A DNA stretch of 64,000 nucleotides from a virus. The stretch lies in IMG/VR virus record IMGVR_UViG_3300025684_000014, positions 59,668 to 123,667 of that record. One strand, written 5' to 3'. The notes below the pieces were generated by a model. The model made no database searches, had not been told where the DNA came from, and saw only the letters and a program-made list of their open reading frames with translations. Positions 1,308-45,610 of this stretch are shown here, piece after piece; position 1 is the stretch's first letter; each line of letters starts with the position of its first letter. The translations under genes and the position numbers were made by a program.

Positions 1308-1380
1308 GCTGGTGTAGCTCAGTTGGTAGAGCCCCTGTCTTGTAAACAGGTTGTCGGGAGTTCAAGTCTCTCCTCCAGCA
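1308..1380 (+). tRNA. tRNA-Thr(UGU)
   Basis: Cloverleaf; anticodon arm CCTGT-CT-TGT-AA-ACAGG; T-loop GTTCAAG; no encoded CCA. Confidence 0.95.
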
Positions 1381-1383
1381 CAT

Positions 1384-1456
1384 GCAAGAATAACTCAATT
1401 GGTAGAGTATCTGCCTTCCAAGCAGAATGTTGCGGGTTCGAGTCCCGTTTCTTGCT
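1384..1456 (+). tRNA. tRNA-Gly(UCC)
   Basis: Acceptor GCAAGAA/TTCTTGC; anticodon arm TCTGC-CT-TCC-AA-GCAGA; T-loop GTTCGAG; no CCA. Confidence 0.95.
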
Positions 1457-1457
1457 C

Positions 1458-1550
1458 TAATAGCTTAAACAACATTCATACTACTTTTAACCTTTTAGAA
1501 AGATTAATCAGTGGTTATGTGTGTCGTGGGTTCAAACGTTTAAGCTATTA
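1458..1550 (+). ncRNA. Putative structured RNA 1 (long closed stem-loop)
   Basis: Perfect 13-bp terminal stem TAATAGCTTAAAC/GTTTAAGCTATTA plus internal pairing. Confidence 0.45.
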
Positions 1551-1553
1551 ATT

Positions 1554-1657
1554 GATGCAGCTTAGCGCCTCTTTTTTCCTACTTTCTTTTAACACTAATA
1601 ATATAGATTAAGAGTTTGCAGGGTTGAGTGTGTAAAAGTGAACTGTTAAGTTGCATC
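1554..1657 (+). ncRNA. Putative structured RNA 2 (long closed stem-loop)
   Basis: 13-bp terminal stem GATGCAGCTTAGC/GTTAAGTTGCATC with two G-U pairs. Confidence 0.45.
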
Positions 1658-1660
1658 TAT

Positions 1661-1733
1661 GCTCTCTTAGCTCAATGGTTAGAGCAATCGGCTGTTAACC
1701 GATAGGTTCTAGGTTCAAGTCCTAGAGAGAGCG
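1661..1733 (+). tRNA. tRNA-Asn(GUU)
   Basis: Acceptor GCTCTCT/AGAGAGC; anticodon arm ATCGG-CT-GTT-AA-CCGAT; no CCA. Confidence 0.95.
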
Positions 1734-3007
1734 TTCTTTTATTTTAATTGTAGAAAGGTCAAACATGTCTGATTACCCTTATCATTTTTCTGATTACGTA
1801 GATATTAAAGCAACTAATGGTTACACAATAAGATTAAAAAGCAGATCAATGTCTAAAGACGCTTTAACATTGGTTGCTAAAAAATCTGGAGTTAATATGG
1901 TTATGTGGGAATGGATGTGGCGCACAGGTAATATTTCCTCTATTACTAGACTTCTTAATACTGAAGTTAATGAAAATGGTTATTCAAGATAACTGAGGCT
2001 TTATTATGAATTTAGATTTTTATCCTTCTTCTACTCTCGAGTGGAATCAGGTTACTAAAGATATTGCTAATAAATTAAAAACAATTATTCCTGATTTAAA
2101 AATTAACTTTACTTTTTTTGAGTATGAAGAAACTTCTATAACTTTATCATTAGAATCTTTTGATAATCTTTGTAAACTTTCTAAAGATCTTTTTTATAAT
2201 TCTGAAGATAAGTTAGTAATAAAAAATTTATTTTTGACTAATTATCAAAAGCATTTTTTAGTTTACTGTGATGTAGAATTTCATGATTATAATAATGGTA
2301 TTCCGCAAAACGTAAAAATATTTTTCGATATAGAGGAAAGTATTGATTAATTATATAATTATTATATTAGTAACTATTTTTATTTTCTTTTCAAATTACA
2401 ATAATAAAATTACTTCTAAATATAATTGTACCTCTAATATAAACAATAAAACTTTACAAGTTTCTTTTTCTCAATACCAAAAACTTATTAATTCTCATTT
2501 AAAAAATAAAATAAAATGTAGGCTTATTTTTAATGAAAATACTTCTTCAAACAAAAGACAAACTTCTTTTTCCCAACTCAATTAATCAAATAACATTAGA
2601 AACTTTTGATAATCAAATTGTTGTTTACGGATCTGATATAAAAAGTTCTCTTTATATTAAAAAATATTCTTCTTCTTCTGAATTGATACATGATTTAAAA
2701 AAAATACAAACTAACAAAAATTTAACTAAAAATTATTTTTGTTCTATCTTGAAATTTTATTCTTCTCTAAGTAAATAACGCTAATCTTCAAGGAGTACAT
2801 ATGAAGAATACAATACTTTTTACACTAATTTTATTTTTAATACTTACTTCTTCTTGTCTAGAAAGCACTAAGATCGAAGAATTACCTGATCTTAATTTTA
2901 GAGACCAAGAATTAGATGATCAAATAAATTATATTTTAGATGATCAAGGTAATCTTTTAGAATTTCACGACTTTGAATTTTCAGAAATCCCTGACCAAGG
3001 TTAAAAA

Positions 3008-7875: not shown

Positions 7876-8611
7876 TAAAAAATTCCTTAAGGTTAAAAAA
7901 TGTTAAAAAAATATATTCCTTTTTTTTCTAAAATATATCAAACTTTTATTATCTTGGCCACAGCTTCAATTGGTTTGCTCGAAGTTTGGCTATGATTACT
8001 TGGAAGTTTTTTATGTTGCCTGAAATATTTGTTTCTTTTTTAGCTATTGTTGGCGCTTTTACTACTACTGCTTTTATTACTTGGTTTATTAAAAACTTTT
8101 TATCTAAGTATTATTACAAAGAGCCATACATGTCTCCTGATCAAAAAAAATATTTTATGCTTTTAGAAGAAAATAAAAAACTTAAAGAAAAAATTTCTTC
8201 TCTTGAAATTGAAGCACAGCAAATAACTGATTCGCTTCTAAAACACATACAAGGATAAATTATGTCTATTTTTCATTTTGATATTGATGCTACTCTTTCT
8301 GTTCAAGCTGATTCTCTTGATCAAGCAGAAACAATTTTCAATGATTACATTACTTTTATTTCTTCAGGAATCCCTCATTCTGATTTCGATCTTTATGATT
8401 ATGATGTAAGAGTAGAGCACGAAGATGTTTCTCCTACTGACAATGGCTCTTATACATCTTTTTCTAGTGTAGTATTGAATAATGCTGTTCAAGATGTAAC
8501 TCAACAGATTCAACAAGTTGAATCTTACACTCCTATGACTGCAACTTCTCAGCAAACTCTTCCTGCTATTCCAGGTTATTCTCGTTTGCGCACTACCAGA
8601 AGTTGATTTTA

Positions 8612-8650
8612 TCCCCTCTCAGATGTAACTTTTAAAATATCTGAGGGGGG
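8612..8650 (+). promoter_or_regulatory. Hairpin overlapping the ribosome-binding site of the Lon-like gene
   Basis: CCCCTCTCAGAT...ATCTGAGGGGGG ending 5 nt before the ATG at 8656. Confidence 0.45.
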
Positions 8651-8655
8651 TATAT

Positions 8656-10254
8656 ATGAATAGTCTTCCATATTTACAAATAGATGCAGAAAATTTAATT
8701 CCACATCCTTCTAATACTTACACTATTGTTTTAGATAAGTCTGAATTTTCTGAAAAGTTTCTATTGCAAACAGAGTCGTTTTCTTACAAAAATGATTCTT
8801 ACAAGAATGCTTTTCTTATAGTTTCTAAATATAAAAATATTATATCTGAAACAGCAGCTTTTTGTAATTGGATAGACACTTCCTACTCTCAAGAAGAAAT
8901 ACTTTTAACCTTTACTTCTTTTTTCAAAGTAAAGGTTAAACAAATTCTTTCTGGCAATAAACTTGCCTTTACTTTCCTATCTTTATCTGCTCATAAAAAA
9001 TATTATAATGATTTTTCTATTCTTTCTACTTATTTAAATTCAAATCTTTTATTTAAAGATTTTTTTATTTCTAAAGATAGAGAGAACTACAAAGATCCCA
9101 ATTACTTAAATAATATATATATACAACTATCTCCTCAGATAGACAAAGACTTTGAATTTTTCAATACTTCTAACCCTTCTAAACAATTAAATATTCTTTA
9201 TTCTTTATTATTAGAGACACAATTACTTTTAGAATTCCAAGAAGATCTATCGTTATCAAACGAATTATTTCCCAAAGAAGTTCTTATTAAATTAAAAAAA
9301 GAAAAAAAACGATTATCTAAAATGAATTCATCTAGTTCTGAATACTCAAATATTCAAGATTACATAGATCTTTTACTTGATATACCTTGGAATTCTTATT
9401 CTGAACAAACATTAAATCCAACTTTAATATCTAAAGAAATATCTAGTACTCACTATGGTTTAGAAAATGTTAAAGAAAATATTTTAGAGTACTTTTATCT
9501 TCACAAACTAACAGGCATAATGGATGGCGCCGTTCTTCTTTTCAACGGACCTCCAGGTACAGGAAAAACTACAATTGCCAAAGCTATTGCTAAAGCAACT
9601 AATAGAGAATTTATATCTATATCTTTAGCGGGTGTTGGCGATGAATCAGAAATTAGAGGCCACAGAAGAACTTACGTAGGTTCTAAACCTGGAAGAATAG
9701 TTTCTGCTATTGCTAATTCGAAAACTATGAATCCTATTATACTTATTGATGAATTAGACAAAATTAAACCTGACAAAGGAGATCCTTTTTCAGCTTTATT
9801 AGAACTTTTAGATCCTGAACAAAACTATGCTTTTATAGACAGGTATTTAGAAGTTCCAATCGATTTATCTAAAGTTACTTTTATATGCACTTCTAATTCT
9901 AAAAATAAAATTCCTGAACCTTTATTAAATAGATGTGAAATAATTGAATTTCAGAATTATTCTTTCGAAGAAAAAAAACACATTCTAATTAACTATATAA
10001 TTCCTAAAATCATCTCTAATTATAAACTTAAATCTTATAATATTATTTTTGAAAGTACTTTATTAGATTACTTGTCTAAACAAAAAGATTTAAGAAACTT
10101 AAAAAAGATAATTTCTAGATTACTAAGAAACAAAACCAAAAAGTTATTATTAGATAACTCTGACACCTTAATAACTTTAGAGCAGTATAAAAAAATATTT
10201 AACGTAACTACGCAAAATTCTACACGGAGAATTGGTTTTGCTACAAATATCTAG
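8656..10254 (+). CDS. Lon-type AAA+ ATPase lacking the C-terminal protease domain
   Basis: GPPGTGKT, EIRGHRRTYVGSKPG, ILIDELDK, LLELLDPEQN; ends soon after the ATPase module with RRIGF; no GPSAG catalytic motif. Confidence 0.9.
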   Translation: MNSLPYLQIDAENLIPHPSNTYTIVLDKSEFSEKFLLQTESFSYKNDSYKNAFLIVSKYKNIISETAAFCNWIDTSYSQEEILLTFTSFFKVKVKQILSGNKLAFTFLSLSAHKKYYNDFSILSTYLNSNLLFKDFFISKDRENYKDPNYLNNIYIQLSPQIDKDFEFFNTSNPSKQLNILYSLLLETQLLLEFQEDLSLSNELFPKEVLIKLKKEKKRLSKMNSSSSEYSNIQDYIDLLLDIPWNSYSEQTLNPTLISKEISSTHYGLENVKENILEYFYLHKLTGIMDGAVLLFNGPPGTGKTTIAKAIAKATNREFISISLAGVGDESEIRGHRRTYVGSKPGRIVSAIANSKTMNPIILIDELDKIKPDKGDPFSALLELLDPEQNYAFIDRYLEVPIDLSKVTFICTSNSKNKIPEPLLNRCEIIEFQNYSFEEKKHILINYIIPKIISNYKLKSYNIIFESTLLDYLSKQKDLRNLKKIISRLLRNKTKKLLLDNSDTLITLEQYKKIFNVTTQNSTRRIGFATNI

Positions 10255-11050
10255 TCAAGATAACCTTATCATTCCTTACCACAATAAAATTATTTCAAAA
10301 TGCGAAGCTTGTTTAAAAAACATACATCCTGATTTTTTAAACTCAAATCCTATAGTCAGTGGTAGTTATGCTATTAATTTGGTTTATTCCCCCGAGTCTT
10401 TTCATAATGACATTGATATATACTTTGCTTCTCAAAACGATTTTGATTTAGCTAAATCTTATATTGAAACTCTTTATCCTAATTCCAAAAAATTTCAAAC
10501 AGAAAATGCGATATCTTTTTCAATTGAAGAAAATAAAGAAGTTCAACTTATCTGTAAGTTTTTTCTTCCCCCGGAAGAGCTTATTTACAAGCACGATTTT
10601 ATTGTTAGTTCTGTCGCTATTTCTAATTCTAAAGTTTATACCACTTTAGAAACTTTTAAAGCTTGGTCTAAATCTGAACTTAGTTTTCGTGATTATCAAT
10701 TTCCCGAATCTAACAAAGATTTAAATAAAGTTTTCATTCGTTTATTTAATATAATTAATAGAATTGATAAATATTCTAAAAGATATTCACTTGATATTAC
10801 CCCTTCTACTTATCAAGATCTTAAATCTATTTACAATTTGATATCATCTAATGATTATTTAAATGAAAGTAATTTTATCGATTCTCCAAACATTCAAACT
10901 CCCGTATTGGATTATTATGGAAGAACTGTAAATTCAAAAATTACTTATAAAGAAATAATTTCTTCTTTGTACAAGTTTCTTAAAGAAGAAAATAGTGACT
11001 CAGATATACTCCCTCCGTCTTTTGAAAGAGACAATTTCTTTACTTTATGA
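10232..11050 (+). CDS. Nucleotidyltransferase-fold protein
   Basis: VSGSYA...NDIDIYF (GS + DxD), later VQLI and HDF motifs. Confidence 0.65.
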   Translation: MVLLQISSQDNLIIPYHNKIISKCEACLKNIHPDFLNSNPIVSGSYAINLVYSPESFHNDIDIYFASQNDFDLAKSYIETLYPNSKKFQTENAISFSIEENKEVQLICKFFLPPEELIYKHDFIVSSVAISNSKVYTTLETFKAWSKSELSFRDYQFPESNKDLNKVFIRLFNIINRIDKYSKRYSLDITPSTYQDLKSIYNLISSNDYLNESNFIDSPNIQTPVLDYYGRTVNSKITYKEIISSLYKFLKEENSDSDILPPSFERDNFFTL

Positions 11051-11259
11051 AAATATATTGCTTAGATAGAGAAGATTGTTGCTTTTATCGTTATTTATCT
11101 GATGACGAATATAAAGTTTATGATTTTGATAAGCCATTTATTCACTGCGAAAATTGTGATTATGTAGCTTTAATTGTTCCTGACGATTTTGTTTTGGAAA
11201 ACAACTCCAAAACAAAATCATTAATTCTTTCAGCCTTAAACAAATTGGATAAACTTTAA
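11047..11259 (+). CDS. Small zinc-ribbon-like protein
   Basis: CLDREDCC and CENC motifs. Confidence 0.55.
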   Translation: MKIYCLDREDCCFYRYLSDDEYKVYDFDKPFIHCENCDYVALIVPDDFVLENNSKTKSLILSALNKLDKL

Positions 11260-13562
11260 TGTTTATAACAACTTATTTTGATAATTCACAACAAGATCTT
11301 ATTTTTCCCTATACCTTAAATAAGCATGGCATAGAAAAATGCATACAAGATCCTGATTATCTATTAAATTTTTTTGACGGTCGCGCTCATTCTATACCCG
11401 ACCTTCAATTATCTTTTTTAAATTCTCTTACTCAAAATTCTCAAATAACTACTTTTTCTACTTTATTAGATAAAATGAATCTTGAAAATCAAAATGAAAG
11501 ATTTGTTTTATCTGATTCTAATTTTTTTTCTACGGTTCTTTTTTCTGCTTTTAATAAGCAGAATAATTATAATATTACTACTAACTTAAGAAGATCTTTT
11601 AATTGGCGATATAATTTTAAAAATATCTCTAAATTTTATACTGAATTCTTTCTTTTTGATCAAGATGTTCATAATCGAAACTTAGAAAACGGTTATATTT
11701 GTTTTGATATTACACCAGATTTTAATCACTATTTTAACGAAGAAAATTTTGAATTAAAGTGTATTTCTTATTTAAAGAGAAATCTAATAGCTACTTTCAA
11801 TGATAAAAAAGTTTATTCTTTGATTTCAAAAACTTCTTATGATAACTATATTAAAGATATGGTTTTTCCAGAGGTTTTTGATTATTCAGAAATAAACCCT
11901 ACTAAAAATATAATTAATTTTGCTTCTTTAAGATCTACTTATCAGGCCAATCTTTTAGCATATTCTAAAGGAATTTTAATTAACTTTGATTTTGTATTTG
12001 AAAATAACTTATTTCAAGAAAAGCTAGAATCTTTAGATCAAACAAAAATTGATGTTATAAAAGTTCCTTCTTTTTCTTCAATTTCTAAAGACAATTTAAT
12101 TGAAAAAACTTCTTATACAAAAAATCAAGTCGTAAAAAGAAACACTTCTTTTACTCCTTCTTTTACTAAAATTAATGTTTTTGGTTTAAATTTTGAAATC
12201 GAAGAAATATATCTTTTAAATTTTTTCTCTCTTTATTCTCATTCTAATTTATCTTCAAGAAAACGTTCAGCTAGACGTTTTTTTGAATTTTATAATTTTC
12301 TTGTAGAAGAAGATTCTCTTCAAATTTTTAATAAAGATTTATATATCGATAGAATGAGACAAAAGTTTAAATCTTTGTTTATTTATTCTAGTGACTTCTT
12401 AAATAATCTTACTGATTCTCAAAAACAATATATTGTTAGTTTAAATCTTAAAAATAATTATAACCATTTTGATGAAAATTTAAATTCTTTAATTTTATCT
12501 TCTCCAAAAATTGATAAAAAGTTAGATTCAAAATACAAAAAGCTAAAAGAAAAAACCAACAAAAGCATTCTTTTTATGAATGATCGTTCTTCTTTGATAA
12601 ATAATTTACTTTACACTTCTGCTGAAATTAAAAAATTAAAAAAAGAGTTAGTTAAACTAACTCAAGATCTTGAAGAAAAATTGGCACAACAGAAAACTTA
12701 TTTTCAAAGATTTTCTACCGAAGCATCTTCTTTGTTTACTAATTATAATCTTTTTTTAACTATTAAAGATAAATATTTTAATGAATATGCTTCTGCTACT
12801 CAATATACTGTTGATCAATTTTTAAATAATTATAGTAATCAAGGAATAAATATAATTGATTTAAATTATACTTATCAAGATAATACTTATTCTATAAATT
12901 TTAAATCTTCTCAACAAGATGTAGCTAAATTTCTTCTTGCTAAAAAAGAAGGCGCTCTTCAGATTGAATCAATTACTTTTTCTACTTCTACCCCTACTAA
13001 AATAAACATTGTTGGTAATCAAGATTCCAGTGTTTATGGTGGGCCTTATGTTGTAAAAGTTACCAAGAATAGTATTAATATTTCTTTGAAAGATACTACT
13101 TCTATTTTTGGCTCAAACCTTTCTACTGGTGCTTGTTTTGTGCACCCTCACTCTGGCGCTACCAGCAGCATTGATAATCTTTATTATCCTAATTATTCTA
13201 GAGCTTGTTTAGGTGAAGCTTCCCCTTTGCTTTATAAAGCTTTTGAAGATAATGATATAAAACTTATTCTTATTTCTGCTATGACTTGGGTTTCTTCAGC
13301 TAACTCTGCTGATACCTGGGGGAAGAATTATATTTATTTTCCTAAAAAACTAGACATGATTCAACAAGAATCTAATTCAGTTTCTCTTTCTGATATTTCT
13401 GAAGAAGAAGTAATAGATTTTCTTTCTGTCTTTTCAGATGAGGATGAGGATGAAGACGATTCTCAACTTAATCAAAACGAACCCACCGATACAGTTGAGC
13501 AACAACCTGTTCAAGAAACACAAGAAACTGTTTACACAAGGTATACTGCTAATACGTTATGA
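11259..13562 (+). CDS. Large protein with coiled coil and C-terminal prokaryotic E2 (UBC)-like domain
   Basis: HPH (aa 629) ... CLG (Cys650), like the UBC HPN...CL motif; directly upstream of JAB and E1 genes; acidic tail. Confidence 0.65.
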   Translation: MFITTYFDNSQQDLIFPYTLNKHGIEKCIQDPDYLLNFFDGRAHSIPDLQLSFLNSLTQNSQITTFSTLLDKMNLENQNERFVLSDSNFFSTVLFSAFNKQNNYNITTNLRRSFNWRYNFKNISKFYTEFFLFDQDVHNRNLENGYICFDITPDFNHYFNEENFELKCISYLKRNLIATFNDKKVYSLISKTSYDNYIKDMVFPEVFDYSEINPTKNIINFASLRSTYQANLLAYSKGILINFDFVFENNLFQEKLESLDQTKIDVIKVPSFSSISKDNLIEKTSYTKNQVVKRNTSFTPSFTKINVFGLNFEIEEIYLLNFFSLYSHSNLSSRKRSARRFFEFYNFLVEEDSLQIFNKDLYIDRMRQKFKSLFIYSSDFLNNLTDSQKQYIVSLNLKNNYNHFDENLNSLILSSPKIDKKLDSKYKKLKEKTNKSILFMNDRSSLINNLLYTSAEIKKLKKELVKLTQDLEEKLAQQKTYFQRFSTEASSLFTNYNLFLTIKDKYFNEYASATQYTVDQFLNNYSNQGINIIDLNYTYQDNTYSINFKSSQQDVAKFLLAKKEGALQIESITFSTSTPTKINIVGNQDSSVYGGPYVVKVTKNSINISLKDTTSIFGSNLSTGACFVHPHSGATSSIDNLYYPNYSRACLGEASPLLYKAFEDNDIKLILISAMTWVSSANSADTWGKNYIYFPKKLDMIQQESNSVSLSDISEEEVIDFLSVFSDEDEDEDDSQLNQNEPTDTVEQQPVQETQETVYTRYTANTL

Positions 13563-14641
13563 ATTCAATTAAGCCTTTTTCTATTCTCAATAGAAACTTT
13601 TATATTTCTATTTCTAATAAATGTCATGAATCTTTTAAAAAGATTGTAGACATTGCTCCTCAAGAATCTCAATGGTTCAATACTGTTAATGAACTTTATG
13701 ATGAAGACGGAGAACTTATTTGTTTAGAGCTTGGTGATCAACTTTATATTCCTGAACAAATTTGTTCTGCTACTGAAGTAGATACTTCTCCTACCATGAT
13801 GATGGATTTTTACAAAGAACTTTTAAAGAGCCATACTCCTGAAGAAACTAATGAAATAATTTCTTCTATGAATTGTTGGAGTCACTCACATGTAAATATG
13901 TCTGTGAACCCTAGTGGCCAGGATGTTTCTCAATTTACTCAATTTGTAAAGCAATCCCAGGATCAGCAATGTAATAAATTTCAAATCATGCTTATTCATA
14001 ATAAGAAGGGAGATTATTATTCTAGAGTTTTCGATCCCTATACAAAACTTATTTACGAAGGTATTCCAGTTTATATAGATTCTGAATTTGATCTTTCTTA
14101 TATTGAAGAAGCTGCTAAAGTTAAATTTAAAAAGAAAGCTTTACCTTCTTCTCTTAAGAATCCTTATGTAAATTCTTCTAAATTTACAGATCTTTTTTCT
14201 CTTTCGTCTTCTAAAGCTTACTCTCCTCTAGAAGATGAAGAAGATTTATCAAAAGTTAATGAAGCTTTGAGTAAAGATCTATTAAATCAAATTTACCACA
14301 CTACTAATTTAAATACTAAAGTTAAACTCAGTAAGAAAGACTCTGTTTTAGCTTACAGTTTACTCACTAATGAGTTTGATCAACAAGAGTTGCTTTGGTT
14401 TTACTTTTTAATTTCTGGAAATAAAGATAAAATTCCAAAGTTTTCTTCTTTAGAAAAAGTTGATCATTTCTTTTTAAACAATCAAAACGTTACAGGCGTT
14501 AAAAACTTTATAATAGATTATTTTAACAAAACCGCTGACACTTTAGCACATCTTCATGAAATTTTTTACACTGTACATTCTCTTACTGACGCCCCTACTA
14601 TTAATAAGTTAAAAGAAATTGTTGAGGATTTGACAATATGA
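13559..14641 (+). CDS. JAB/MPN+ metallopeptidase (deubiquitinase-like)
   Basis: Glu36 and HSHVNMSVNPSGQD = HxH-x7-S-x2-D JAMM motif. Confidence 0.85.
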   Translation: MNSIKPFSILNRNFYISISNKCHESFKKIVDIAPQESQWFNTVNELYDEDGELICLELGDQLYIPEQICSATEVDTSPTMMMDFYKELLKSHTPEETNEIISSMNCWSHSHVNMSVNPSGQDVSQFTQFVKQSQDQQCNKFQIMLIHNKKGDYYSRVFDPYTKLIYEGIPVYIDSEFDLSYIEEAAKVKFKKKALPSSLKNPYVNSSKFTDLFSLSSSKAYSPLEDEEDLSKVNEALSKDLLNQIYHTTNLNTKVKLSKKDSVLAYSLLTNEFDQQELLWFYFLISGNKDKIPKFSSLEKVDHFFLNNQNVTGVKNFIIDYFNKTADTLAHLHEIFYTVHSLTDAPTINKLKEIVEDLTI

Positions 14642-15336
14642 CTCAAGTAAATTTTATGAGGCACGCATCATATTTTGGCCCTGAAGATGCTGCTGACAAA
14701 ACGCTTACTATTATTGGTGCAGGTGCTACTGGCTCTTGGGTTGCTTTAATTGCAGCAAAAATGGGTTGGCACAATTTTTCTATTTGGGATTCTGATATTG
14801 TTGAATCACACAATTTGCCAAACCAGGTTTATGGTGTTGAGCATATTGGTATGCAAAAAGTAGATGCTTTAGAGCAAGTACTAAAAGCTTTTAATCCTCA
14901 ATGTTCTGTTGAAAAGCACAATGAATTTTTTATTGGTTCTAATGAAGATCACAAAAGCTCATTAGAAGATTATGTTTATGTTGCTGTAGATTCTCTTTCG
15001 GCTAGAAAAGATATCATTTCTAATTGCTTTCATTTACCCTTTACAGATCTTATTTTCGAAACTAAAATGGGCTTTGAGCATGCAGAAATCAATATATTCT
15101 CTCCTTCAAACGAACAAGCTATGAACTCTTATCTTGGAATGCTTAAAAGCGATGACGAGGTGGAGGAAAGCGCTTGCGATGCTAAAATCATAACTACACT
15201 TACCACTATCGTGGCTTCCACTTTAGTACATGCTTTATGTGGCCATGCCTCTCTTTCTCGAAGAGGCAAAAATACTTTTTACGATTCTAAACAAATTATT
15301 TCTCTTCAAGATAAATTAACCACTATCTCTTTTTAA
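14638..15336 (+). CDS. E1-like ThiF/MoeB-family adenylyltransferase
   Basis: IIGAGATGS, DSDIVESHNLPNQ, KVDAL, AVDS; no CxxC zinc pairs; candidate catalytic Cys180. Confidence 0.92.
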   Translation: MTQVNFMRHASYFGPEDAADKTLTIIGAGATGSWVALIAAKMGWHNFSIWDSDIVESHNLPNQVYGVEHIGMQKVDALEQVLKAFNPQCSVEKHNEFFIGSNEDHKSSLEDYVYVAVDSLSARKDIISNCFHLPFTDLIFETKMGFEHAEINIFSPSNEQAMNSYLGMLKSDDEVEESACDAKIITTLTTIVASTLVHALCGHASLSRRGKNTFYDSKQIISLQDKLTTISF

Positions 15337-15345
15337 GGATAAAAA

Positions 15346-15546
15346 ATGGATACACCTACAATGAATCAACGAATTCAAGCTTTAATCGACCAGCTTCAAG
15401 CATCTCTTTCCGATGCTGATCGTTTTGATCGAGGTCAGAATGCTGCAGGTATTAGAATTAGAAAGCTCGCTCAAGATGTAAAAGTTGAATGTCAATCTAT
15501 TCGTAAAGATATTCAAACAATTCGCGATTCACGCAAAAACTCTTAA
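15346..15546 (+). CDS. Small helical-hairpin protein, Hc1/histone-H1-like family
   Basis: F.RGQNAAGIRIRK...KV...IRKDIQ pattern. Confidence 0.6.
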   Translation: MDTPTMNQRIQALIDQLQASLSDADRFDRGQNAAGIRIRKLAQDVKVECQSIRKDIQTIRDSRKNS

Positions 15547-15560
15547 TTTAAGGAAATATT

Positions 15561-15776
15561 ATGTCTACTATTACTCTTGTTGTTATTCCTGGCCCTGGTG
15601 CCCGCACCGTAACTGTTCCTGATGGAATGACTGTTGAGCAACTTGTTGTTCAAGAGAATCTTCATGGAAGAGATATTATCGTTAATGGAGAAGGTGTTTC
15701 TCCTGGAACTTATTCAAGTACTCTTGTTACTCCAAGCTCTGAAATCTTTGCTACAGGTTCAGTAAAAGGTAACTAA
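15561..15776 (+). CDS. Ubiquitin-like beta-grasp protein (single domain)
   Basis: 71 aa; MTVEQL, IIVNG and EIF beta-grasp pattern; ends VKGN; adjacent to E1/JAB. Confidence 0.85.
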   Translation: MSTITLVVIPGPGARTVTVPDGMTVEQLVVQENLHGRDIIVNGEGVSPGTYSSTLVTPSSEIFATGSVKGN

Positions 15777-15781
15777 TTTTT

Positions 15782-16081
15782 ATGGGTGCTGAAACTTTCT
15801 ACGAGTTTTCTTCTGGAAAAACAGCCAAAGAAGCTTTTAGCAAAGCAGTTAAAGACGCTGCTTATCAATATGGTCACTCAGGATATACTGGATCTATTGC
15901 TGAAAAAAGTGATTTTTCTATGGTTACTGAAAAGACTTTTTCTTCTTCTGAAGCATGGAACCTTGCAAGGTCTTTAATTAGCACTGATTATTCAGATAAA
16001 TGGGGGCCTGCTGGATGCATACAGGTTCAGTCTGATTCTCAACAAAATATTTATCTTTTCTTTGGCTGGGCTTCTAGCTGA
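15782..16081 (+). CDS. Conserved-looking phage hypothetical protein
   Basis: GHSGYTGSIAEK, DKWGPAG, LFFGWASS motifs. Confidence 0.7.
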   Translation: MGAETFYEFSSGKTAKEAFSKAVKDAAYQYGHSGYTGSIAEKSDFSMVTEKTFSSSEAWNLARSLISTDYSDKWGPAGCIQVQSDSQQNIYLFFGWASS

Positions 16082-16100
16082 TAAAATTTATAATTAAAAT

Positions 16101-16307
16101 ATGTCTAAAATTAATTTAATAAATGTAAATAAAAATTATCGATTAACTATAGCTTACCCAAAAGTACTTTCTTTACATCAATTCCTTTTTGATAATAATT
16201 CTTTGGGCTATAGAGCTATAGTTAATGGTAGAGATATATGTCGGAATGATTGGAAATATACTGTTTTACAACCAAATTCCGATGTACACTTACTTCAACA
16301 CTTTTAA
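16101..16307 (+). CDS. Divergent Ubl-like protein without a C-terminal Gly
   Basis: AIVNGRDI...W..TVL.PNSDVH aligns with IIINGQGI...W.STIVPSDAEVF of the Ubls. Confidence 0.55.
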   Translation: MSKINLINVNKNYRLTIAYPKVLSLHQFLFDNNSLGYRAIVNGRDICRNDWKYTVLQPNSDVHLLQHF

Positions 16308-16333
16308 TTTATTTGTTATAGAAAGATTTTATT

Positions 16334-16972
16334 ATGTCTACAATTACACTTGTTGTTATTCCTGGCCCTGGCGCTCGCACTGTAACCATTTCTGACTCTG
16401 CTACTGTTGCAGATCTTGCTTGCCAAGAAAACCTTCATGGTCGTGACATTATCATTAACGGTCAAGGCATCTCTCCTTCTCAATGGAGTTCTACTATCGT
16501 TCCTTCTGATGCAGAAGTCTTTGCTACTGGCTCAGTAAAGGGCAATACTAGTTCTGCAACACTAGTTGTGATTCCTGGTCCTGGCGCTCGAACTGTTTCT
16601 CTAGATGACTCTATGACGGTTAGTGATCTTGTTTGTCGTGAGAATTTGCATGGTCGTGACATTATCATTAATGGCGAGGGAATTTCTCCAAACCATTGGG
16701 AGACTCATCAAATTCCAGAAAACGCAGAGATCTTTGCTACTGGTTCTGTGAAGGGCAATACTGATATCGCGACCCTCGTCGTCATTCCTGGCCCTGGTGC
16801 AAGATCAATAACTCTTTCTCAAGATATGACTGTTGCAGATTTGGTTTGCCGTGAAAACCTTCATGGTCGCGACATCATTATTAACGGACAAGGTGTACCT
16901 CCAACTTCTTGGGAAACTACTACTGTCCCCCCTTCTTCAGAAATTTTTGCAACCGGCTCTGTAAAGGGCAAT
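16334..16972 (+). repeat. 3 x 213-bp imperfect tandem repeat; a fourth copy lies at 15561-15773
   Basis: Units 16334-16546, 16547-16759, 16760-16972 with many synonymous differences. Confidence 0.9.
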
Positions 16973-16975
16973 TAA
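16334..16975 (+). CDS. Tandem triple ubiquitin-like protein (poly-Ubl)
   Basis: Three exact-length 71-aa repeats, each ending ATGSVKGN. Confidence 0.9.
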   Translation: MSTITLVVIPGPGARTVTISDSATVADLACQENLHGRDIIINGQGISPSQWSSTIVPSDAEVFATGSVKGNTSSATLVVIPGPGARTVSLDDSMTVSDLVCRENLHGRDIIINGEGISPNHWETHQIPENAEIFATGSVKGNTDIATLVVIPGPGARSITLSQDMTVADLVCRENLHGRDIIINGQGVPPTSWETTTVPPSSEIFATGSVKGN

Positions 16976-16990
16976 TAATATAGAGTCAAT

Positions 16991-17266
16991 ATGATTTTTG
17001 TAACAGCTATTGGTGATTCAGCAAAGAAAGCATATTTAAACGCAAAAGAAGAAGATTTGATGTGGGCTAATTATAATGAAGATCATATCCAATCTGTTGA
17101 CTTAACTAAGCGTTATTTTATTCTTTCTGTAGATGTTTTTGAATCAAAGGAAGAAGCCATTCAATTTGCTTCTTCCTTTGATTATTCTACAATTAAATAT
17201 CGTAAAAATACTTCTGGCGCATTAATTCTTACTAACGATACTTACTTGTTTTTTACTCTTCCATAA
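16991..17266 (+). CDS. Hypothetical protein, diverged paralog of 15782..16081
   Basis: GDSAKKAY vs GKTAKEAF; FESKEEA vs FSSSEA; YLFF near both C-termini. Confidence 0.55.
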   Translation: MIFVTAIGDSAKKAYLNAKEEDLMWANYNEDHIQSVDLTKRYFILSVDVFESKEEAIQFASSFDYSTIKYRKNTSGALILTNDTYLFFTLP

Positions 17267-17973
17267 TTTTAAAGGTTTTTATATGTCTACAAATAAGCTT
17301 ACTGCAATTCTTATTACTGGCGATGTTGATTCTGTTATCAAAGCTGTTAATTCCTTTGATTTTTCTTCTGCTGAAAACCAAACAACAAAGTTGGCTTTCC
17401 AAGACATTTCAAATGATCTTTGTCAAGAAGATAATTCTGTAGAGTATTCTGCTTACACTTGGAACTTTACAGATCAGGACATTAATCAAAAGCAAAACAC
17501 TGCTGCAAAGATGTATCTTGCTAAGAACCCTATTGTTCGTTTTGATAATCTTATGAATTATATTGGCAATACTACTAACCTTAAACCTTCTAATGCAGCG
17601 CTTTCAAACTTTCTTCGAAAGAATAACTATCAAAGAAAGCTTGTTAAAAATCTTGCACTCGGCACTACAAGAGTTATCTGGAAGAAAGCTTAATTATGTT
17701 TCCTGATTGTTTTACAAAAAAACAACTTTCAGAATATAGTTTTCTTTTTTGCTTTGACCTAAATAAAGTTCCGACTACTTCTCAGCAAATTTTAAAACTT
17801 GCTGAATTGATTACTTCTTTAGAAAAACAAAATTATATTTGTTCTGTAAAGCCAGATAAACGTCTTAGAGCAAATGGTCTTTTTGTTGTTTTTGCTAATA
17901 CTTCTCAATATTATTCTGATCTCAAATCTAAGCGACAAAAAGTTTTAAAAGCTTGGGATATTAAATAATAATA

Positions 17974-18411
17974 ATGATAATTCAAATCGTAGGTTTACCT
18001 GGTACAGGTAAATCTTTTTTAATAAAAAAATTTCTTCAAAAAAACAAATATAAAAACATTTTTTACTTAGATATTATAAATTTTAAACACATTAAATCTC
18101 TAATATTTAAAGCTAAATCACTTTCTCAAAAAAATAATATAGTTATTTTAGAGTCAGCTTGCGGTATCTCTAATCTCTCGAGTATAGTTTTATTACATAG
18201 AACTTCTAAACGTAACTATGTCAACAATTGTTTAAAAAGAGGTATTGATATAAATTCTTCTGAGCTATTACTCATAAAAGAAAATATAATACCTGCACAT
18301 TATACAACTTATACACCTAAATCATTTGAAGTTCTTTTAAATTCCCTAATAAGGAAAGAAAAAAATGAAAGAACTTTACTTAACAAAAGATCAACTAGAC
18401 AAATTTTTTAA
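17974..18411 (+). CDS. P-loop kinase-like protein
   Basis: N-terminal IVGLPGTGKS Walker A. Confidence 0.65.
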   Translation: MIIQIVGLPGTGKSFLIKKFLQKNKYKNIFYLDIINFKHIKSLIFKAKSLSQKNNIVILESACGISNLSSIVLLHRTSKRNYVNNCLKRGIDINSSELLLIKENIIPAHYTTYTPKSFEVLLNSLIRKEKNERTLLNKRSTRQIF

Positions 18412-19219
18412 AGATTCTAAACTTAAAATTCCTGAAGATTTTTTTTCTGAGCCTGATGAGAATGAATATTCTATTATTAAAGCTGATTCTTCTTCAGCTT
18501 TAGTTAAATATAAATCTCCTTATTTCTTTCCTTTGAATTTAAATCAGAATTTACAAGGAATAAAACCAAAAGACGCTAGACAAAAAGCTTTTATAGACTC
18601 TCTTTTAGATCCAAAAATTTTAATGTCAGTAGCATTAGGCAAAGCTGGTACTGGTAAAACTCTTTTATCTATCGCTTATGCTTTGAATCAATATTTTAGA
18701 AACGATAAAAATATTATTCTTATCAAACCTTCTATTTATGTTGGCGGCAAATCATCTGTTATGGGGATTTTGCCTGGTGACGTAAATGATAAAATGAGTG
18801 GCATAATGTCTTCTTACATGGTGCATATTAGAGCTCTTTTGGGTTCTGATGCTGAGCATTTTATTTTTCAAATGCTCGAAGATGATAGATTAAAATATCT
18901 TCCAGTAGAGCTTGCTCGTGGTATGTCTTTGGAAAACTCAGTTGTCATATTTGATGAGTGTCAAAATGCTGATATTCACACAATGAAAACTATTGTTTCT
19001 AGAGTTGCTGCTACTAGTAAGCTTATTTGTCTTGGAGATCTTGGTCAAATAGATGCTCCTTTTAAAAAAGATGAATCAGGTTTAAATATATTTTTAGAAT
19101 CAACTCACTTTAAAAATTCACCTGTCACTTCTCAAATAACTTTAACTTCTCAATACAGATCTGCTCTTGCAGATTTATGCGAATCAATTACTGAAGAGTA
19201 TTACTCTCAACAAGGATAA
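18365..19219 (+). CDS. phoH: PhoH-family ATPase
   Basis: GKAGTGKT, LPGD, RGMSL, DECQN, GDLGQID. Confidence 0.92.
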   Translation: MKELYLTKDQLDKFFKDSKLKIPEDFFSEPDENEYSIIKADSSSALVKYKSPYFFPLNLNQNLQGIKPKDARQKAFIDSLLDPKILMSVALGKAGTGKTLLSIAYALNQYFRNDKNIILIKPSIYVGGKSSVMGILPGDVNDKMSGIMSSYMVHIRALLGSDAEHFIFQMLEDDRLKYLPVELARGMSLENSVVIFDECQNADIHTMKTIVSRVAATSKLICLGDLGQIDAPFKKDESGLNIFLESTHFKNSPVTSQITLTSQYRSALADLCESITEEYYSQQG

Positions 19220-19220
19220 C

Positions 19221-19649
19221 ATGTACCCTACATCATTTAATATTTACAAAAAGTCTGCTGCTGCTCAATTTACTTTACTTCCTCCTCGCACAGACGATAA
19301 TAACAGAATTCAAAAGACTGGAGCTATTCTTCTTGAAATGGCACCTTCTGCTGGCGAAAAGTCTTATAACTGGAAGAGCCAAAAGCTTACTTTTGCTTTT
19401 GGAATCAATGATCTTACACAGTTCTTCGATGATCCTTCTTCTCCTAAGTGGGGAAGCTTTTATCATGATAATGACGGTACTGGAAAGAAGCTTACCCTTA
19501 GCCCTGGTGAAGGTAAGTATGCTGGAACTTTTATGATGTCTCTTTCTAGTGGAGATCAACGTGTTAGCGTATCTCTTTCTGCTGGAGAATTCCAAGTTCT
19601 TGGAAGACTTTTTACTGCTGCTTTACCTAAAATGCTTGGTTGGGATTAA
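19221..19649 (+). CDS. Whirly-like ssDNA-binding protein
   Basis: IYKKSAA, LLEMAP...YNW, FYHD, EF and P.MLGW match the plant Whirly pattern; AAGGA ribosome-binding site before the ATG at 19221. Confidence 0.75.
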   Translation: MYPTSFNIYKKSAAAQFTLLPPRTDDNNRIQKTGAILLEMAPSAGEKSYNWKSQKLTFAFGINDLTQFFDDPSSPKWGSFYHDNDGTGKKLTLSPGEGKYAGTFMMSLSSGDQRVSVSLSAGEFQVLGRLFTAALPKMLGWD

Positions 19650-27765: not shown

Positions 27766-29085
27766 ATGTGCAGTAACGATCATCACAATCATGATGACTC
27801 TCAAGCGCATCAAGAAACTGATGGTAAGTTTGTACATTTTCATGTGCATACTGAGTATTCTCTTCTTGATGGTATTAACAAAGTTTCTCGATTACCAAAA
27901 AGAGCAAAAGAGCTCGGTATGCCTGCTGTGACTATATCTGATCATGGCAACATATCAGGCAGTTACAAATTTTATAAAGAGTGTAAAAAGCATGACATCC
28001 AACCTATTATTGGTATGGAAGCTTATTACACAGTAAATGATCGCCATGCAAAAGAGCCTGATGAACTAGGTAAATCTTACTATCATTTGATCTTACTTGC
28101 TCAAAACAATACTGGTCTTCACAACCTTATGAAGCTTAGCTCTTATGCTTATACAGAAGGTATGTATCGTAAGCCACGTATTGATGACGCTCTTATTGCT
28201 GAATACTCAGAAGGCTTAATAGCTACTACCACATGTCTTGGCAGTAGAGCTAGTCAGCTTATTCTTAACGGCGAAAAAAAAGCTGCTCAAAATCTCATAC
28301 TCCATCATAAAGCAATGTTTAAAGATCGTTTTATGGTTGAGCTTCAGCTTCACAAAGATGAAGAACAACAAACAGTTAATAAAGTACTCCAAGAAATTGC
28401 TTTAGACCATAATCTTCCAATGATTATCACAAATGACTGCCATTATACCTATGAGCATGATAAAATGCATCACGAAGCTGCTCTTTGTATGCAAACAAAG
28501 ACTACTTTAGCTGATGAAAATCGTTTTAGTTTTGGCGAAATTGACGTTCACTTTGCTTCTCATGATTGGATGTGGAAACAAGCTGAAGCTCAAAATATGC
28601 CTTATGATGTAATTTCAAATACTGCTCATTTGACCAGTATGATCGATAGCGATTCTTATTTTATGGATAAGATGAATCGTTATCCAAAATTTCAAGAAAT
28701 CCCTGAAGGTCTTACAAGCCCAGAACATTTAGCTATTGAAGCTCAACATGGACTTTATGCACGTTTTGGAGAAATGCCTCCACTTGAGTACAGAGAACGT
28801 TTATCAGAAGAATTAAATGTTATAAAGAGAATGGGTTTTTCTGATTACATGTTAATCGTTGCCCAATTTATGAATGGCGCTCGAGACTATGGTGTTATGC
28901 ATGGTCCAGGTCGTGGTTCTGCTGCAGGAAGTCTTGTAGCTTGGGCATTACGAATTACTGAAGTCGATCCAATAAAATACGATTTGATGTTTTCTCGTTT
29001 TCTTAACGAGGGTCGTGCTGCGACTCCTCTTATTTTTAACAAAGAAATGGCAGCAAAAGCTGACCAATACACTATGCCTTTTTAA
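27766..29085 (+). CDS. dnaE: DNA polymerase III alpha, fragment 1 (PHP domain and start of palm)
   Basis: HFHVHTEYSLLDG, SDHGN, TNDCHY, GPGRGSAAGSLVA, FSRFLNEGR, then a short tail and stop. Confidence 0.93.
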   Translation: MCSNDHHNHDDSQAHQETDGKFVHFHVHTEYSLLDGINKVSRLPKRAKELGMPAVTISDHGNISGSYKFYKECKKHDIQPIIGMEAYYTVNDRHAKEPDELGKSYYHLILLAQNNTGLHNLMKLSSYAYTEGMYRKPRIDDALIAEYSEGLIATTTCLGSRASQLILNGEKKAAQNLILHHKAMFKDRFMVELQLHKDEEQQTVNKVLQEIALDHNLPMIITNDCHYTYEHDKMHHEAALCMQTKTTLADENRFSFGEIDVHFASHDWMWKQAEAQNMPYDVISNTAHLTSMIDSDSYFMDKMNRYPKFQEIPEGLTSPEHLAIEAQHGLYARFGEMPPLEYRERLSEELNVIKRMGFSDYMLIVAQFMNGARDYGVMHGPGRGSAAGSLVAWALRITEVDPIKYDLMFSRFLNEGRAATPLIFNKEMAAKADQYTMPF

Positions 29086-45496: not shown

Positions 45497-45610
45497 ATGA
45501 AAATTGTATCTAAAGAATATTTAGGCAAGCAACAAGTTTATGATATTGGAATTTCTTCTTATACTAATAATCATAATTTCTTTTTAAAGAATGGCCTTGT
45601 TGCTCATAAT
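45497..45610 (+). mobile_element. Split intein, C half (38 aa)
   Basis: MKIVSKEYLGKQQVYDIG...HNFFLKNGLVAHN followed by Cys+1. Confidence 0.95.

Follow-up and report, generated by a model that had tools for sequence, protein, structure and literature searches.

Whether a marine phage may encode a complete apparatus for attaching ubiquitin-like modifiers to proteins and removing them again is the question raised by a block of genes in the IMG/VR virus record IMGVR_UViG_3300025684_000014 (123,667 bp in total, 79% complete by CheckV), analysed here over bases 59,668–123,667, a stretch of 64,000 nucleotides referred to as the window. A preliminary description of the window, made from its letters alone, had read this block as a full operon for ubiquitin-like conjugation, comprising an E2-like protein, a JAB (JAMM-motif) peptidase, an E1 enzyme, a ubiquitin-like protein (Ubl) and a poly-Ubl. 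The anatomy of that reading stands, with E1, JAMM peptidase, Ubl, poly-Ubl and a Cys-bearing E2-like domain all encoded on a phage, and the E2 assignment is its weak link. A phage-encoded cascade of Ubl conjugation and deconjugation is considered here a fairly probable interpretation, and the Ubls that would feed it end in an invariant Lys-Gly-Asn (K-G-N).

The 232-amino-acid (aa) protein of the block is with certainty, by profile comparison, an E1 of the ThiF family (Pfam accession: PF00899; 85.6 bits against a cut-off of 28.1, E-value 3.8e-24, residues 16–217), which bears out the E1/ThiF enzyme with Cys180 proposed earlier. Its GxGxxG motif (G27, G29 and G32) and residues D51, D53, K74, D118, R123 and C180 are invariant in all 64 unique relatives. 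The protein matches the E1 portion of 31 PADLOC ‘E1-E2’ (Cap2) models, the best at 2.2e-15; its best NCBIfam model is PRK08644 (ThiF; 1.4e-21), with all NCBIfam ThiF/MoeB equivalogs far below cut-off (for example, 77 versus 159 bits). Against the PDB, the E1 family profile retrieves an uncharacterised ThiF-type protein (PDB accession: 9egb; 5.7e-14) and PaaA (1.5e-12), then UBA5, TcdA, ThiF and MoeB, and further down MccB (3.8e-7), Cap2 (1.4e-6) and BubCD (1.1e-5). The enzyme begins 20 residues ahead of its GxGxxG motif, and the match to MccB spans only residues 21–94.

Identification of the 360-aa protein as a JAMM/MPN+ peptidase follows from an exact motif together with a confident fold match, sequence profiles being weak. 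The site comprising E36 and H109-S110-H111-x7-S119-x2-D122 is invariant in 19 of 19 sequences, and its residues are kept in 60–64 of 66 wider relatives, the remainder being mostly gaps, with S110 replaced by Lys in three and by Thr in one. An AlphaFold2 model (predicted local distance difference test score, pLDDT, 82.1) has as its top Foldseek match in the PDB the Pyrococcus furiosus JAMM1–SAMP2 entry 5lda (E-value 2.9e-7; template modelling (TM) score 0.77 on the target), followed by Rpn11, BRCC36, CSN5, the Caldiarchaeum Rpn11 homologue and BubCD, with 88 matches at E≤0.001. By sequence, PADLOC JAB models match at 9.3e-5 over residues 109–148 only, no Pfam JAB family matches at E≤1, and the family profile finds no PDB sequence at E≤1. 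The JAMM-motif peptidase (E36, HxH-x7-S-x2-D) of the preliminary description is thus confirmed by the conservation of its motif and by the JAMM1/Rpn11-like predicted fold.

The third enzymatic component is the C-terminal domain of the 767-aa protein, for which an HMMER search with residues 500–767 (a 268-aa query in which the HPH motif is H130–H132 and Cys650 is C151) recovered 228 proteins at E≤1e-3 from 1.84 billion representatives, most of them 700–1100 aa long with the matched region at the C-terminus. The family consensus reads VGGPY...HPH...ACLGEAS...W..SANS.D.WGK, with C151 (Cys650), G153, W178 and D186 invariant; among 73 unique relatives Cys650 is kept in 71, with gaps in the remaining two. 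Ubiquitin-conjugating (UBC) enzymes carry an active-site string of the PROSITE type H-P-[NH]-[IV]-x3-4-G-x-x-C-[LI], and distant relatives of the phage domain, found via E1, read W-T-x-x-D-P-H-P-H-V-N-G-x-x-G-x-A-C-L-G-N. The exact pattern occurs in one of 75 unique E2-like open reading frames (ORFs) and a relaxed form in 12, against none of the 2,935 other ORFs of the same loci, and PH-x6-10-C-x-G occurs in 40 of the 75 versus 1 of the 2,935. A model of the domain (pLDDT 86.8), aligned by VIA-align to 48,161 chains, gave weak matches, with 27 E2 or ubiquitin E2 variant (UEV) folds and six RWD-type folds among the best 50 listed. Among its ESM-Atlas neighbours, 28 of the 30 nearest named clusters carry Prok-E2_D, mostly viral and with a top score of 0.90, the share of members with that domain being 11–67%; a BFVD fold search returned one homologue, an uncharacterised Caudovirales protein. 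No PF14460 (Prok-E2_D) member was found in 401 genomes from the phylum of one MAG (metagenome-assembled genome) that carries the cassette.

Taken on the E2-dominated if weak fold matches, the HPH-x8-10-Cys arrangement in relatives, the Prok-E2_D language-model neighbours and the invariant Cys, the domain is assigned with moderate confidence as E2-like, outside any curated E2 family. The ~500 residues ahead of it contain no Pfam domain, and the whole protein varies from 325 to 1320 aa among relatives. A clan-CD (caspase/legumain-like) reading of the H...A-C-x-G string was also entertained, legumains being known to cleave after Asn; caspases and legumain have ~40 residues between His and Cys, and this candidate was rejected on the gap of 8–10 residues in relatives, as in UBC, and on the lack of any caspase-like chain among the best 50 listed VIA-align rows. 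A complex prediction of two E1 copies with Ubl and the E2-like domain scored 0.03 against a mark of 0.32 and is counted in neither direction.

The putative modifiers are likely, on profile matches, to form a beta-grasp family. The poly-Ubl trimer matches the Pfam families OTU1_UBXL (32.5 bits; cut-off 22.7), ThiS (21.8; cut-off 22.5) and SAMP2 (20.1; cut-off 27), as well as TIGR01683 thiS (7.5e-8; 32.6 bits against a cut-off of 37.45), which Ubl1 matches at 0.071; the best PDB match of the Ubl family profile is E. coli ThiS, at an E-value of 0.12 and with the whole domain covered. While the remaining domain is strongly divergent, the last three residues of 88 unique Ubl units are nearly fixed, with Lys in 87, Gly in 87 and Asn in all 88, and no unit among the 88 ends with Gly at the stop or has a residue other than Asn after Gly. 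Among 68 unique Ubl ORFs, 33 stop directly after Asn and 17 add exactly one variable residue (K, L, V, S, R, I, Q, M or N), the others extending 2–136 residues past Asn or into further Ubl units. In the ORFs that run on, K-G-N leads into a further Ubl unit, the domain termed p99 or a basic tail rich in Gly and Arg (..GRPSGGGRGNNP..K); the poly-Ubls of relatives have two, three or four units, with K-G-N on each.

In eukaryotic precursors of ubiquitin and Ubls, too, the end is invariant and gives way to a cap that varies, a repeat or a fusion partner, and it is this parallel that points to a processing site after Asn. Since Asn is present in all 88 units and the variable part begins after it, Asn71 rather than Gly is probably the activated terminus; in the weak alignment with ThiS (E-value 0.12), K69 falls on ThiS A64 and, by extension, G70-N71 on ThiS G65-G66. 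The retention of K-G-N on every unit would mark a cleavable polyprotein. The VKGN ending had been noted in the preliminary description and is present, but its treatment there as an ordinary Ubl end does not hold, as an invariant Asn breaks the Gly rule. The Ubl hidden Markov model (HMM) was seeded from sequences ending in K-G-N, by which Ubls with other ends may have escaped; such Ubls may exist, given four loci with no detected Ubl and candidates ending in Gly or Ala in cultured phages.

Two kinds of Ubl fusion are seen among relatives. In L003, L005, L008, L013 and L014 (for example, L003:9762-10049) a conserved basic tail of the form P[ST]xTGRPSGGGRGNNPxRGK stands directly after the K-G-N of the Ubl, and would come free as a peptide of ~25 aa if the junction were cut. 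In L006:11145-11864 (two units), L010:10929-12080 (four units) and L015:11037-11972 (three units), p99 is fused C-terminally to a poly-Ubl, an arrangement that resembles ubiquitin–ribosomal protein fusions.

Co-occurrence of the components was assessed in two scans of IMG/VR. The E2-like family identified 12 loci, in all of which E2-like, JAB, E1 and Ubl genes stand in this same order; the E1 family identified 80 loci, 12 of them on contigs of the E2-like scan. Counted with HMMs built from our own alignments and iterated on the ORFs of the loci, all four parts are found in 68 of the 80 E1-seeded viral loci and the JAMM peptidase in 76; chance does not account for the arrangement. Of the 12 loci lacking the full set, eight are cut by a contig end and four are fully flanked with no Ubl detected. 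Gene order differs by clade (E2-like–JAB–E1–Ubl, Ubl–E2-like–JAB–E1 or Ubl–E1–JAB–E2-like), and this variation, together with the paired E2-like paralogues of some loci, argues that the linkage is functional rather than merely inherited. Two E2-like paralogues, both with the Cys, occur in L037, L039, L046–L049, L067, L068, L076 and L081; L041 and L043–L045 encode an E2-like protein of 1305–1320 aa, with no Ubl gene detected.

Among prokaryotic genomes the family was seldom found. In 185,579 prokaryotic species (one genome each; 32.2 million contigs), an alignment-based scan found the E2-like family on two contigs of metagenome-assembled genomes (MAGs), a scan with a single protein having found none; both contigs carry the same, phage-like cassette, and one measures 158 kb. 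This near-absence from the genomes of species, combined with the viral record, argues for a property of phages rather than a host island. The phage origin proposed earlier is upheld: the record is classed as a virus in IMG/VR, and the window encodes ribonucleotide reductase (RNR), a split DnaE-type DNA polymerase, a primase-helicase and tail-fibre-like proteins. The record does not establish a ‘jumbo’ phage, measuring 123.7 kb at 79% completeness.

In the cascade considered fairly probable, the Ubl would be produced in two forms, a monomer of 71 aa and a trimer of head-to-tail units, and in relatives also as fusions to p99 or to a Gly/Arg-rich tail; the JAMM peptidase would cut these precursors at their K-G-N junctions, cleavage after Asn being favoured, and would probably also strip the Ubl from its targets. 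The single-domain E1 would adenylate the C-terminal carboxylate of the Ubl and hand it to Cys180, after which the UBC-like domain of the 767-aa protein would accept it on Cys650; a thioester relay is favoured by the invariance of both cysteines, that of the E1 and that of the E2-like protein. Target selection would fall to the long, variable N-terminal part of the 767-aa protein, as has been proposed for the E3-less E2s of Bil, and whichever targets there may be, candidate roles include counter-defence, host takeover and regulated turnover via the neighbouring Lon-like AAA+ ATPase. The roles put forward in the preliminary description (tagging of host defence proteins, marking for degradation, jamming of a host Ubl defence) likewise rank as candidates. 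A bolder version, which is tentative and rather doubtful, is that of a large and hitherto undescribed phage Ubl family activated at its C-terminal Asn, through the E1 and E2-like Cys or through an MccB-like succinimide, to write an Asn- or isoAsn-linked ‘ubiquitin code’ insulated from the host. This could, with equal reserve, extend to a dedicated JAMM peptidase, poly-Ubl and fusion precursors and possibly a Lon-like AAA+ reader acting during the infection of marine bacteria; it is similarly speculative that host enzymes and deubiquitinases (DUBs) specific for Gly could neither make nor erase such a linkage.

Several observations weigh against the cascade. For the E2-like domain, Foldseek finds nothing in the PDB at E≤0.001; Pfam E2 families (UQ_con and Prok-E2_A–E) match none of 62 full-length proteins and none of 37 core domains at E≤1; and PF14460 (Prok-E2_D) finds nothing in eight phage records. 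Against the PDB, the full-length family profile yields coiled-coil noise only (profile positions ~300–490) and no E2, and the core-domain profile only DARPin and L13 rows at E-values of 0.3–1.4. The HPH-to-Cys spacing of the window protein is 18 residues versus 8–10 in relatives, the window clade carrying an insertion between the two. The E2 claim of the preliminary description thus survives in its HPH, its Cys650 and an E2-leaning list of folds, but not in any curated E2 profile or significant Foldseek match. In the E1 family, the SNLNRQ-type motif reads H-N-[LC]-[PA]-N-Q, with Asn for Arg in 64 of 64 members, and 9egb and PaaA keep NRQ in the aligned region; the substitution leaves membership of the E1 superfamily intact and seems to mark a divergent active site. 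Profile matches of the Ubl lie at or below curated cut-offs, except for OTU1_UBXL on the trimer. The Asn end also departs from the Gly end of characterised conjugation pathways, and of the E1-like enzymes only MccB, to our knowledge, offers a precedent for activity at a terminal Asn. The characterised pathways, as described, use a C-terminal Gly (PMC11601596; PMC10557695), whereas for MccB a C-terminal Asn is described as strictly required, with an acyl-adenylate leading to a succinimide and then to an N–P-linked nucleotide, and no thioester (PMC12250964).

An MccB-like chemistry would accommodate the invariant Asn, which would be adenylated and converted to a succinimide, the product being a nucleotidylated Ubl (Ubl-isoAsn-N-P-AMP, where AMP is adenosine monophosphate) or an amine-reactive succinimide, with the E2-like protein as adaptor or receptor. 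The terminal Asn of all 88 units, followed by variable residues or a stop, is consistent with it, as are the E1-like, strictly Asn-dependent and thioester-free nature of MccB itself (PMC12250964), an E1 profile that fits PaaA and MccB as well as or better than Cap2 and BubCD, and the replaced NRQ Arg. It is nonetheless quite unlikely: C180 (64/64) and C650 (71/73) are conserved, as a relay predicts and MccB chemistry does not need; the bare 232-aa E1 lacks the ~90-residue N-terminal peptide clamp described as defining MccB and PaaA (PMC12250964); and a JAMM isopeptidase in 76 of 80 loci fits reversible protein conjugation. Alternatively, conjugation might proceed from Gly, Asn being no more than an obligatory cap. 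Cleavage by the JAMM peptidase between G70 and N71 would then give a mature end ...VKG, Asn would act as the P1' determinant, and even monomers would be licensed by the protease. Single-residue Asn caps are known on yeast Ub and Rub1 precursors, G70 is conserved like N71 (87 of 88 units), and the peptidase is nearly universal (76 of 80 loci) even though Asn is the last residue of 33 of the 68 Ubl ORFs. Bil DUBs, moreover, are described as pre-processing the Ubl to expose a C-terminal Gly (PMC10557695). Yet no unit among the 88 ends at Gly or shows another residue after it, variability begins after Asn and not after Gly (including the 17 ORFs with one extra residue), and the length of the ThiS tail is matched only with Asn retained, if the weak alignment (E-value 0.12) is followed, all of which makes a cap unlikely.

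Rather than writing tags, the cassette might serve to erase or divert those of the host, the JAMM peptidase stripping conjugates of Bil or CBASS type (cyclic-oligonucleotide-based antiphage signalling systems) while host machinery is titrated or wrongly loaded by the remaining parts, namely the E1, the E2-like protein and the Ubls. Bil, type II CBASS and probably Bub are described as antiphage systems (PMC11601596), and the cassette sits among early/replication-type genes; but an eraser needs the peptidase alone, whereas in 68 of 80 loci the four parts vary together, equipped with catalytic residues of their own and with a private KGN Ubl, whose unlikeness to host Gly ends would suggest insulation rather than mimicry, and a decoy or eraser is very unlikely. 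Still further from the evidence, and hardly credible, are a ThiS/MoaD-type sulfur carrier forming a thiocarboxylate and a host island in a viral bin. The E1 scores best in NCBIfam against ThiF models, its relatives bear the GenBank label ‘thiamine biosynthesis protein’ and the closest PDB match of the Ubl is ThiS. Set against a sulfur carrier are the ThiF/MoeB equivalog scores far below cut-off, the absence of a Gly-Gly end on the Ubl, and the company that the E1 keeps, an E2-like Cys protein and a JAMM peptidase (76 of 80 loci). Across the whole 123,667-bp record (79% complete), ThiG gives only a sub-threshold 11.7 bits and MoaE no match, and for these two families the earlier statement that thiamine and molybdopterin genes are absent holds. 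A host island is contradicted by a viral record with phage hallmark genes and by a family found on two of 32.2 million genome contigs, both with the phage-like cassette.

The cascade favoured here, that of Ubl conjugation and deconjugation, has counterparts in several known systems. Eukaryotic polyubiquitin and ubiquitin-fusion genes share with the phage genes head-to-tail repeats, a short variable cap and fusions to unrelated small proteins, whose release requires a DUB, and differ in that the phage modifier is ThiS-like, 71 aa long and ends in KGN, and is accompanied by a JAMM peptidase and not a Cys DUB. Bil (BilABCD) likewise combines Ubl, E2, JAB/JAMM and E1 with no E3, its E2 being thought to choose the target (PMC11601596), and its DUB is described as pre-processing the Ubl and able to deconjugate it (PMC10557695). 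Unlike Bil, the present cassette lies on lytic-type phage genomes and not in host islands. The Bil E1 is described as a tandem of one inactive and one active adenylation domain together with a Cys domain that is mobile (IAD-AAD-CYS; PMC11601596), whereas the phage E1 is a single 232-aa domain; the phage E2-like domain forms the C-terminus of a 325–1320-aa protein and has no E2 profile match; and the phage Ubl ends in KGN rather than Gly and forms true head-to-tail units, each with the terminal motif. Bub (6E/DUF6527) is described as having an E1 and E2 devoid of catalytic Cys, Tyr/Ser oxyesters and a serine protease, BubE (PMC11601596), in contrast to the two invariant Cys of the phage cassette, and no DUF6527 was found at E≤1 among 10 cassette ORFs scanned. 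Type II CBASS has Cap2, an E1-E2 fusion, beside a cGAS/DncV-like nucleotidyltransferase (CD-NTase) and an effector, and a JAB protein, Cap3. Shared with it are the match of the E1 to the E1 part of Cap2 models and of the JAB protein to PADLOC JAB; here, by contrast, E1 and E2-like protein are unfused, the proposed conjugate is a dedicated Ubl and not the C-terminus of an enzyme, and neither a CD-NTase nor an effector was recognised, with no CD-NTase model from PADLOC matching among eight ORFs scanned.

The same operon logic is found in the bacterial E1-E2-JAB operons with two or three tandem Ubls (for example, mlr6139) described by Iyer, Burroughs and Aravind (2006), whose account calls tandem Ubl domains ‘reminiscent of eukaryotic poly-ubiquitin’, with bacteria listed; what its passages on phages describe is only the lambda/T1 pair of tail-assembly Ubl and JAB, without E1 or E2, and they give no KGN end. 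Multi-beta-grasp Ubls are reported as common in a survey of Bil and Bub Ubls (PMC11601603). MccB–MccA and ThiF-like enzymes of ribosomally synthesised and post-translationally modified peptides (RiPPs) are alike in pairing an E1-like adenylating enzyme with a ribosomal product that has an invariant, required Asn (PMC12250964), and unlike in that the phage substrate is a folded ~70-aa beta-grasp protein, the phage E1 has an invariant Cys and no RiPP recognition element (RRE) or peptide clamp, and a JAMM peptidase and E2-like protein are present. By its sequence features the cassette therefore lies outside Bil, Bub, type II CBASS and MccB. In the open-access and bioRxiv literature, supplements aside, neither an E1/E2/JAB/Ubl cassette in lytic phage genomes nor an Asn-ended Ubl was found described; what is new is a phage-borne system, kin to Bil, Bub and type II CBASS, with a single-domain E1, a divergent E2-like domain joined to a long and variable stretch, a KGN end and polyprotein or fusion precursors.

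Homologues of the E1, at 25–35% identity, occur in three cultured phages, Flavobacterium phage FpV4 (L017), Bacteroides phage crAss001 (L100; NC_049977.1) and Xanthomonas phage PhiXhv-15. Our E1 HMM matches all three, and the JAMM HMM matches FpV4 and crAss001 (the gp76–77 pair), in both of which the E1 and JAMM genes are neighbours, with no match in the PhiXhv-15 locus. By eye, and at motif level only, flanking proteins of FpV4, crAss001 (gp76–gp79) and PhiXhv-15 carry H-[PS]-H...C-x-G, and N-terminal Ubl-like segments end in ..KSGG (FpV4), ..KSGA (crAss001) and ..ASGG (PhiXhv-15), not in KGN; the E2-like and Ubl HMMs match none of these flanking proteins at E≤10. These proteins are annotated as ‘thiamine biosynthesis protein’, ‘metalloprotease domain’ or hypothetical, and a text search of the crAss001 paper (PMC6235969) for chosen terms returned no occurrence.

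The features of the block and its surroundings are collected in the table below. The genes named in the preliminary description are present in the ORF listing on the + strand where it had placed them, with motifs correctly read; its gene list was accurate as far as it went but overlooked four genes inside the block, those for the Hc1-like protein, p99, p68 and p91. Every gene between 8.6 and 17.3 kb lies on the + strand, and consecutive genes from p70 to E1 overlap by 1–4 bases. Promoter-like sites in 8000–18500 occur at chance frequency (54 versus 49.9 +/- 6.7 in shuffles), and terminator-like sites in the same interval fall mostly within genes.

Features of the cassette and adjoining genes (window coordinates)
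Feature	Position	Strand	Remarks
Lon-like AAA+ ATPase, 532 aa	8656-10254	+	Pfam AAA PF00004, 2.3e-27, residues 294-432
p272	10232-11050	+	Family without assignment; invariant G44, D60, D62 (G...DxD string)
p70, small Cys-rich protein	11047-11259	+	ORF; weak Zn-ribbon match, E 0.047; stop overlaps start of E2-like gene
767-aa protein, E2-like gene	11259-13562	+	HPH 629-631, Cys650
N-terminal ~500 residues of 767-aa protein	11259-12755	+	Length-variable among relatives; coiled-coil stretch
E2-like (UBC-like) domain of 767-aa protein	12756-13562	+	HPH 629-631, invariant Cys650, acidic tail after
JAMM/MPN+ metallopeptidase, 360 aa	13559-14641	+	JAMM part residues ~1-190; C-terminal helical domain ~223-357
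E1-like ThiF-type adenylating enzyme, 232 aa	14638-15336	+	Single domain, Cys180
Hc1-like basic histone-like protein, 66 aa	15346-15546	+	PF07432, 3.8e-10, 39.9 bits (cut-off 23.5)
Ubl1, 71 aa	15561-15776	+	Ends GSVKGN (K69-G70-N71-stop)
p99	15782-16081	+	Fold unassigned; no Pfam family; fused to poly-Ubl in relatives
p68, degenerate Ubl-like	16101-16307	+	Without KGN end
poly-Ubl, 213 aa	16334-16975	+	Three units, 1-71, 72-142 and 143-213, each ending GSVKGN
p91	16991-17266	+	Paralogue-like relative of p99; last gene of block

Several neighbours recur with the cassette, of which the AAA+ ATPase, p272 and the Hc1-like protein might be parts of the system. Six of the 12 loci from IMG/VR, and the two MAG loci as well, have a homologue of the AAA+ ATPase upstream; the label ‘Lon-like’ reflects what we take to be a resemblance to Lon near the Walker B motif and the sensor region, Pfam finds AAA only and no protease domain was detected, and the ATPase could be functionally linked to the cassette as an unfoldase that reads the tag. 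Homologues of p272 occur in 10 of the 12 loci; a Pfam scan of 10 members at E≤1 gave a best E-value of 0.026 to an unrelated family, and the PDB a single unrelated row at 0.43. A likeness of p272 to pol-beta-type nucleotidyltransferases (G...DxD) stays a motif-level idea, with no Pfam or PDB support. Homologues of p70 are present in seven of the 12 loci, and those of the Hc1-like protein, which matches the chlamydial-type histone H1-like Hc1 family, in nine, at the same place between E1 and Ubl. Free homologues of p99 occur in four of the 12 loci and fused ones in L006 and L010 (six of 12 in total), with a further fusion in the MAG locus L015; p91 has homologues in four of the 12, and in L004 a single ORF matches p99 as well as p91. 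p68 aligns over the Ubl beta-grasp at 24% identity, ends in ...LLQHF and matches the Ubl units of L003 by Blastp at 2.5e-5, and may be a non-conjugatable Ubl-like protein.

Elsewhere, the window (25–39% guanine and cytosine) also encodes Thy1, PhoH, an amidase and a Whirly-like protein, the last of 160 aa (19167–19649, +; PF08536, 7.8e-13) and from a single-stranded DNA-binding family better known from plants. Three tRNA genes, Thr(TGT), Gly(TCC) and Asn(GTT), cluster at 1308–1734 (+). ORFs at 27766–29085 (+) and 45497–46759 (+) match the N-terminal (32–443) and C-terminal (790–1055) parts, respectively, of the DNA polymerase family phrog_405; the two are separated by ~16 kb that includes tail-fibre-like genes, by which the polymerase appears split, and its closest cultured match is annotated as DNA polymerase III alpha. 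Adjacent proteins of 660 and 666 aa (58745–62727, −) have no PHROG match at E≤1e-5. Metagenome runs of marine and estuary origin, produced in several studies, contain near-identical DNA, with no RNA run among the 20 listed.

The K-G-N end of the phage Ubl breaks the ‘C-terminal glycine’ rule and ties Ubl activation to Asn chemistry of the MccB type; with Lys69 directly before Gly70, trypsin would leave a GN remnant on a modified Lys, calculated at +171.06 Da. Poly-Ubl and Ubl-fusion genes parallel the polyubiquitin and ubiquitin-fusion precursors of eukaryotes, here outside eukaryotes, and, given the motif-level relatives in crAss001 (gp76–79) and FpV4, a tractable model and widespread mis-annotation may exist. 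Bil, Bub and type II CBASS are known, in the literature surveyed, as host defence; a cassette on the side of the phage would mean that phages also write protein tags, opening a search for targets among host defence proteins, host takeover and the control of virion or replication functions.

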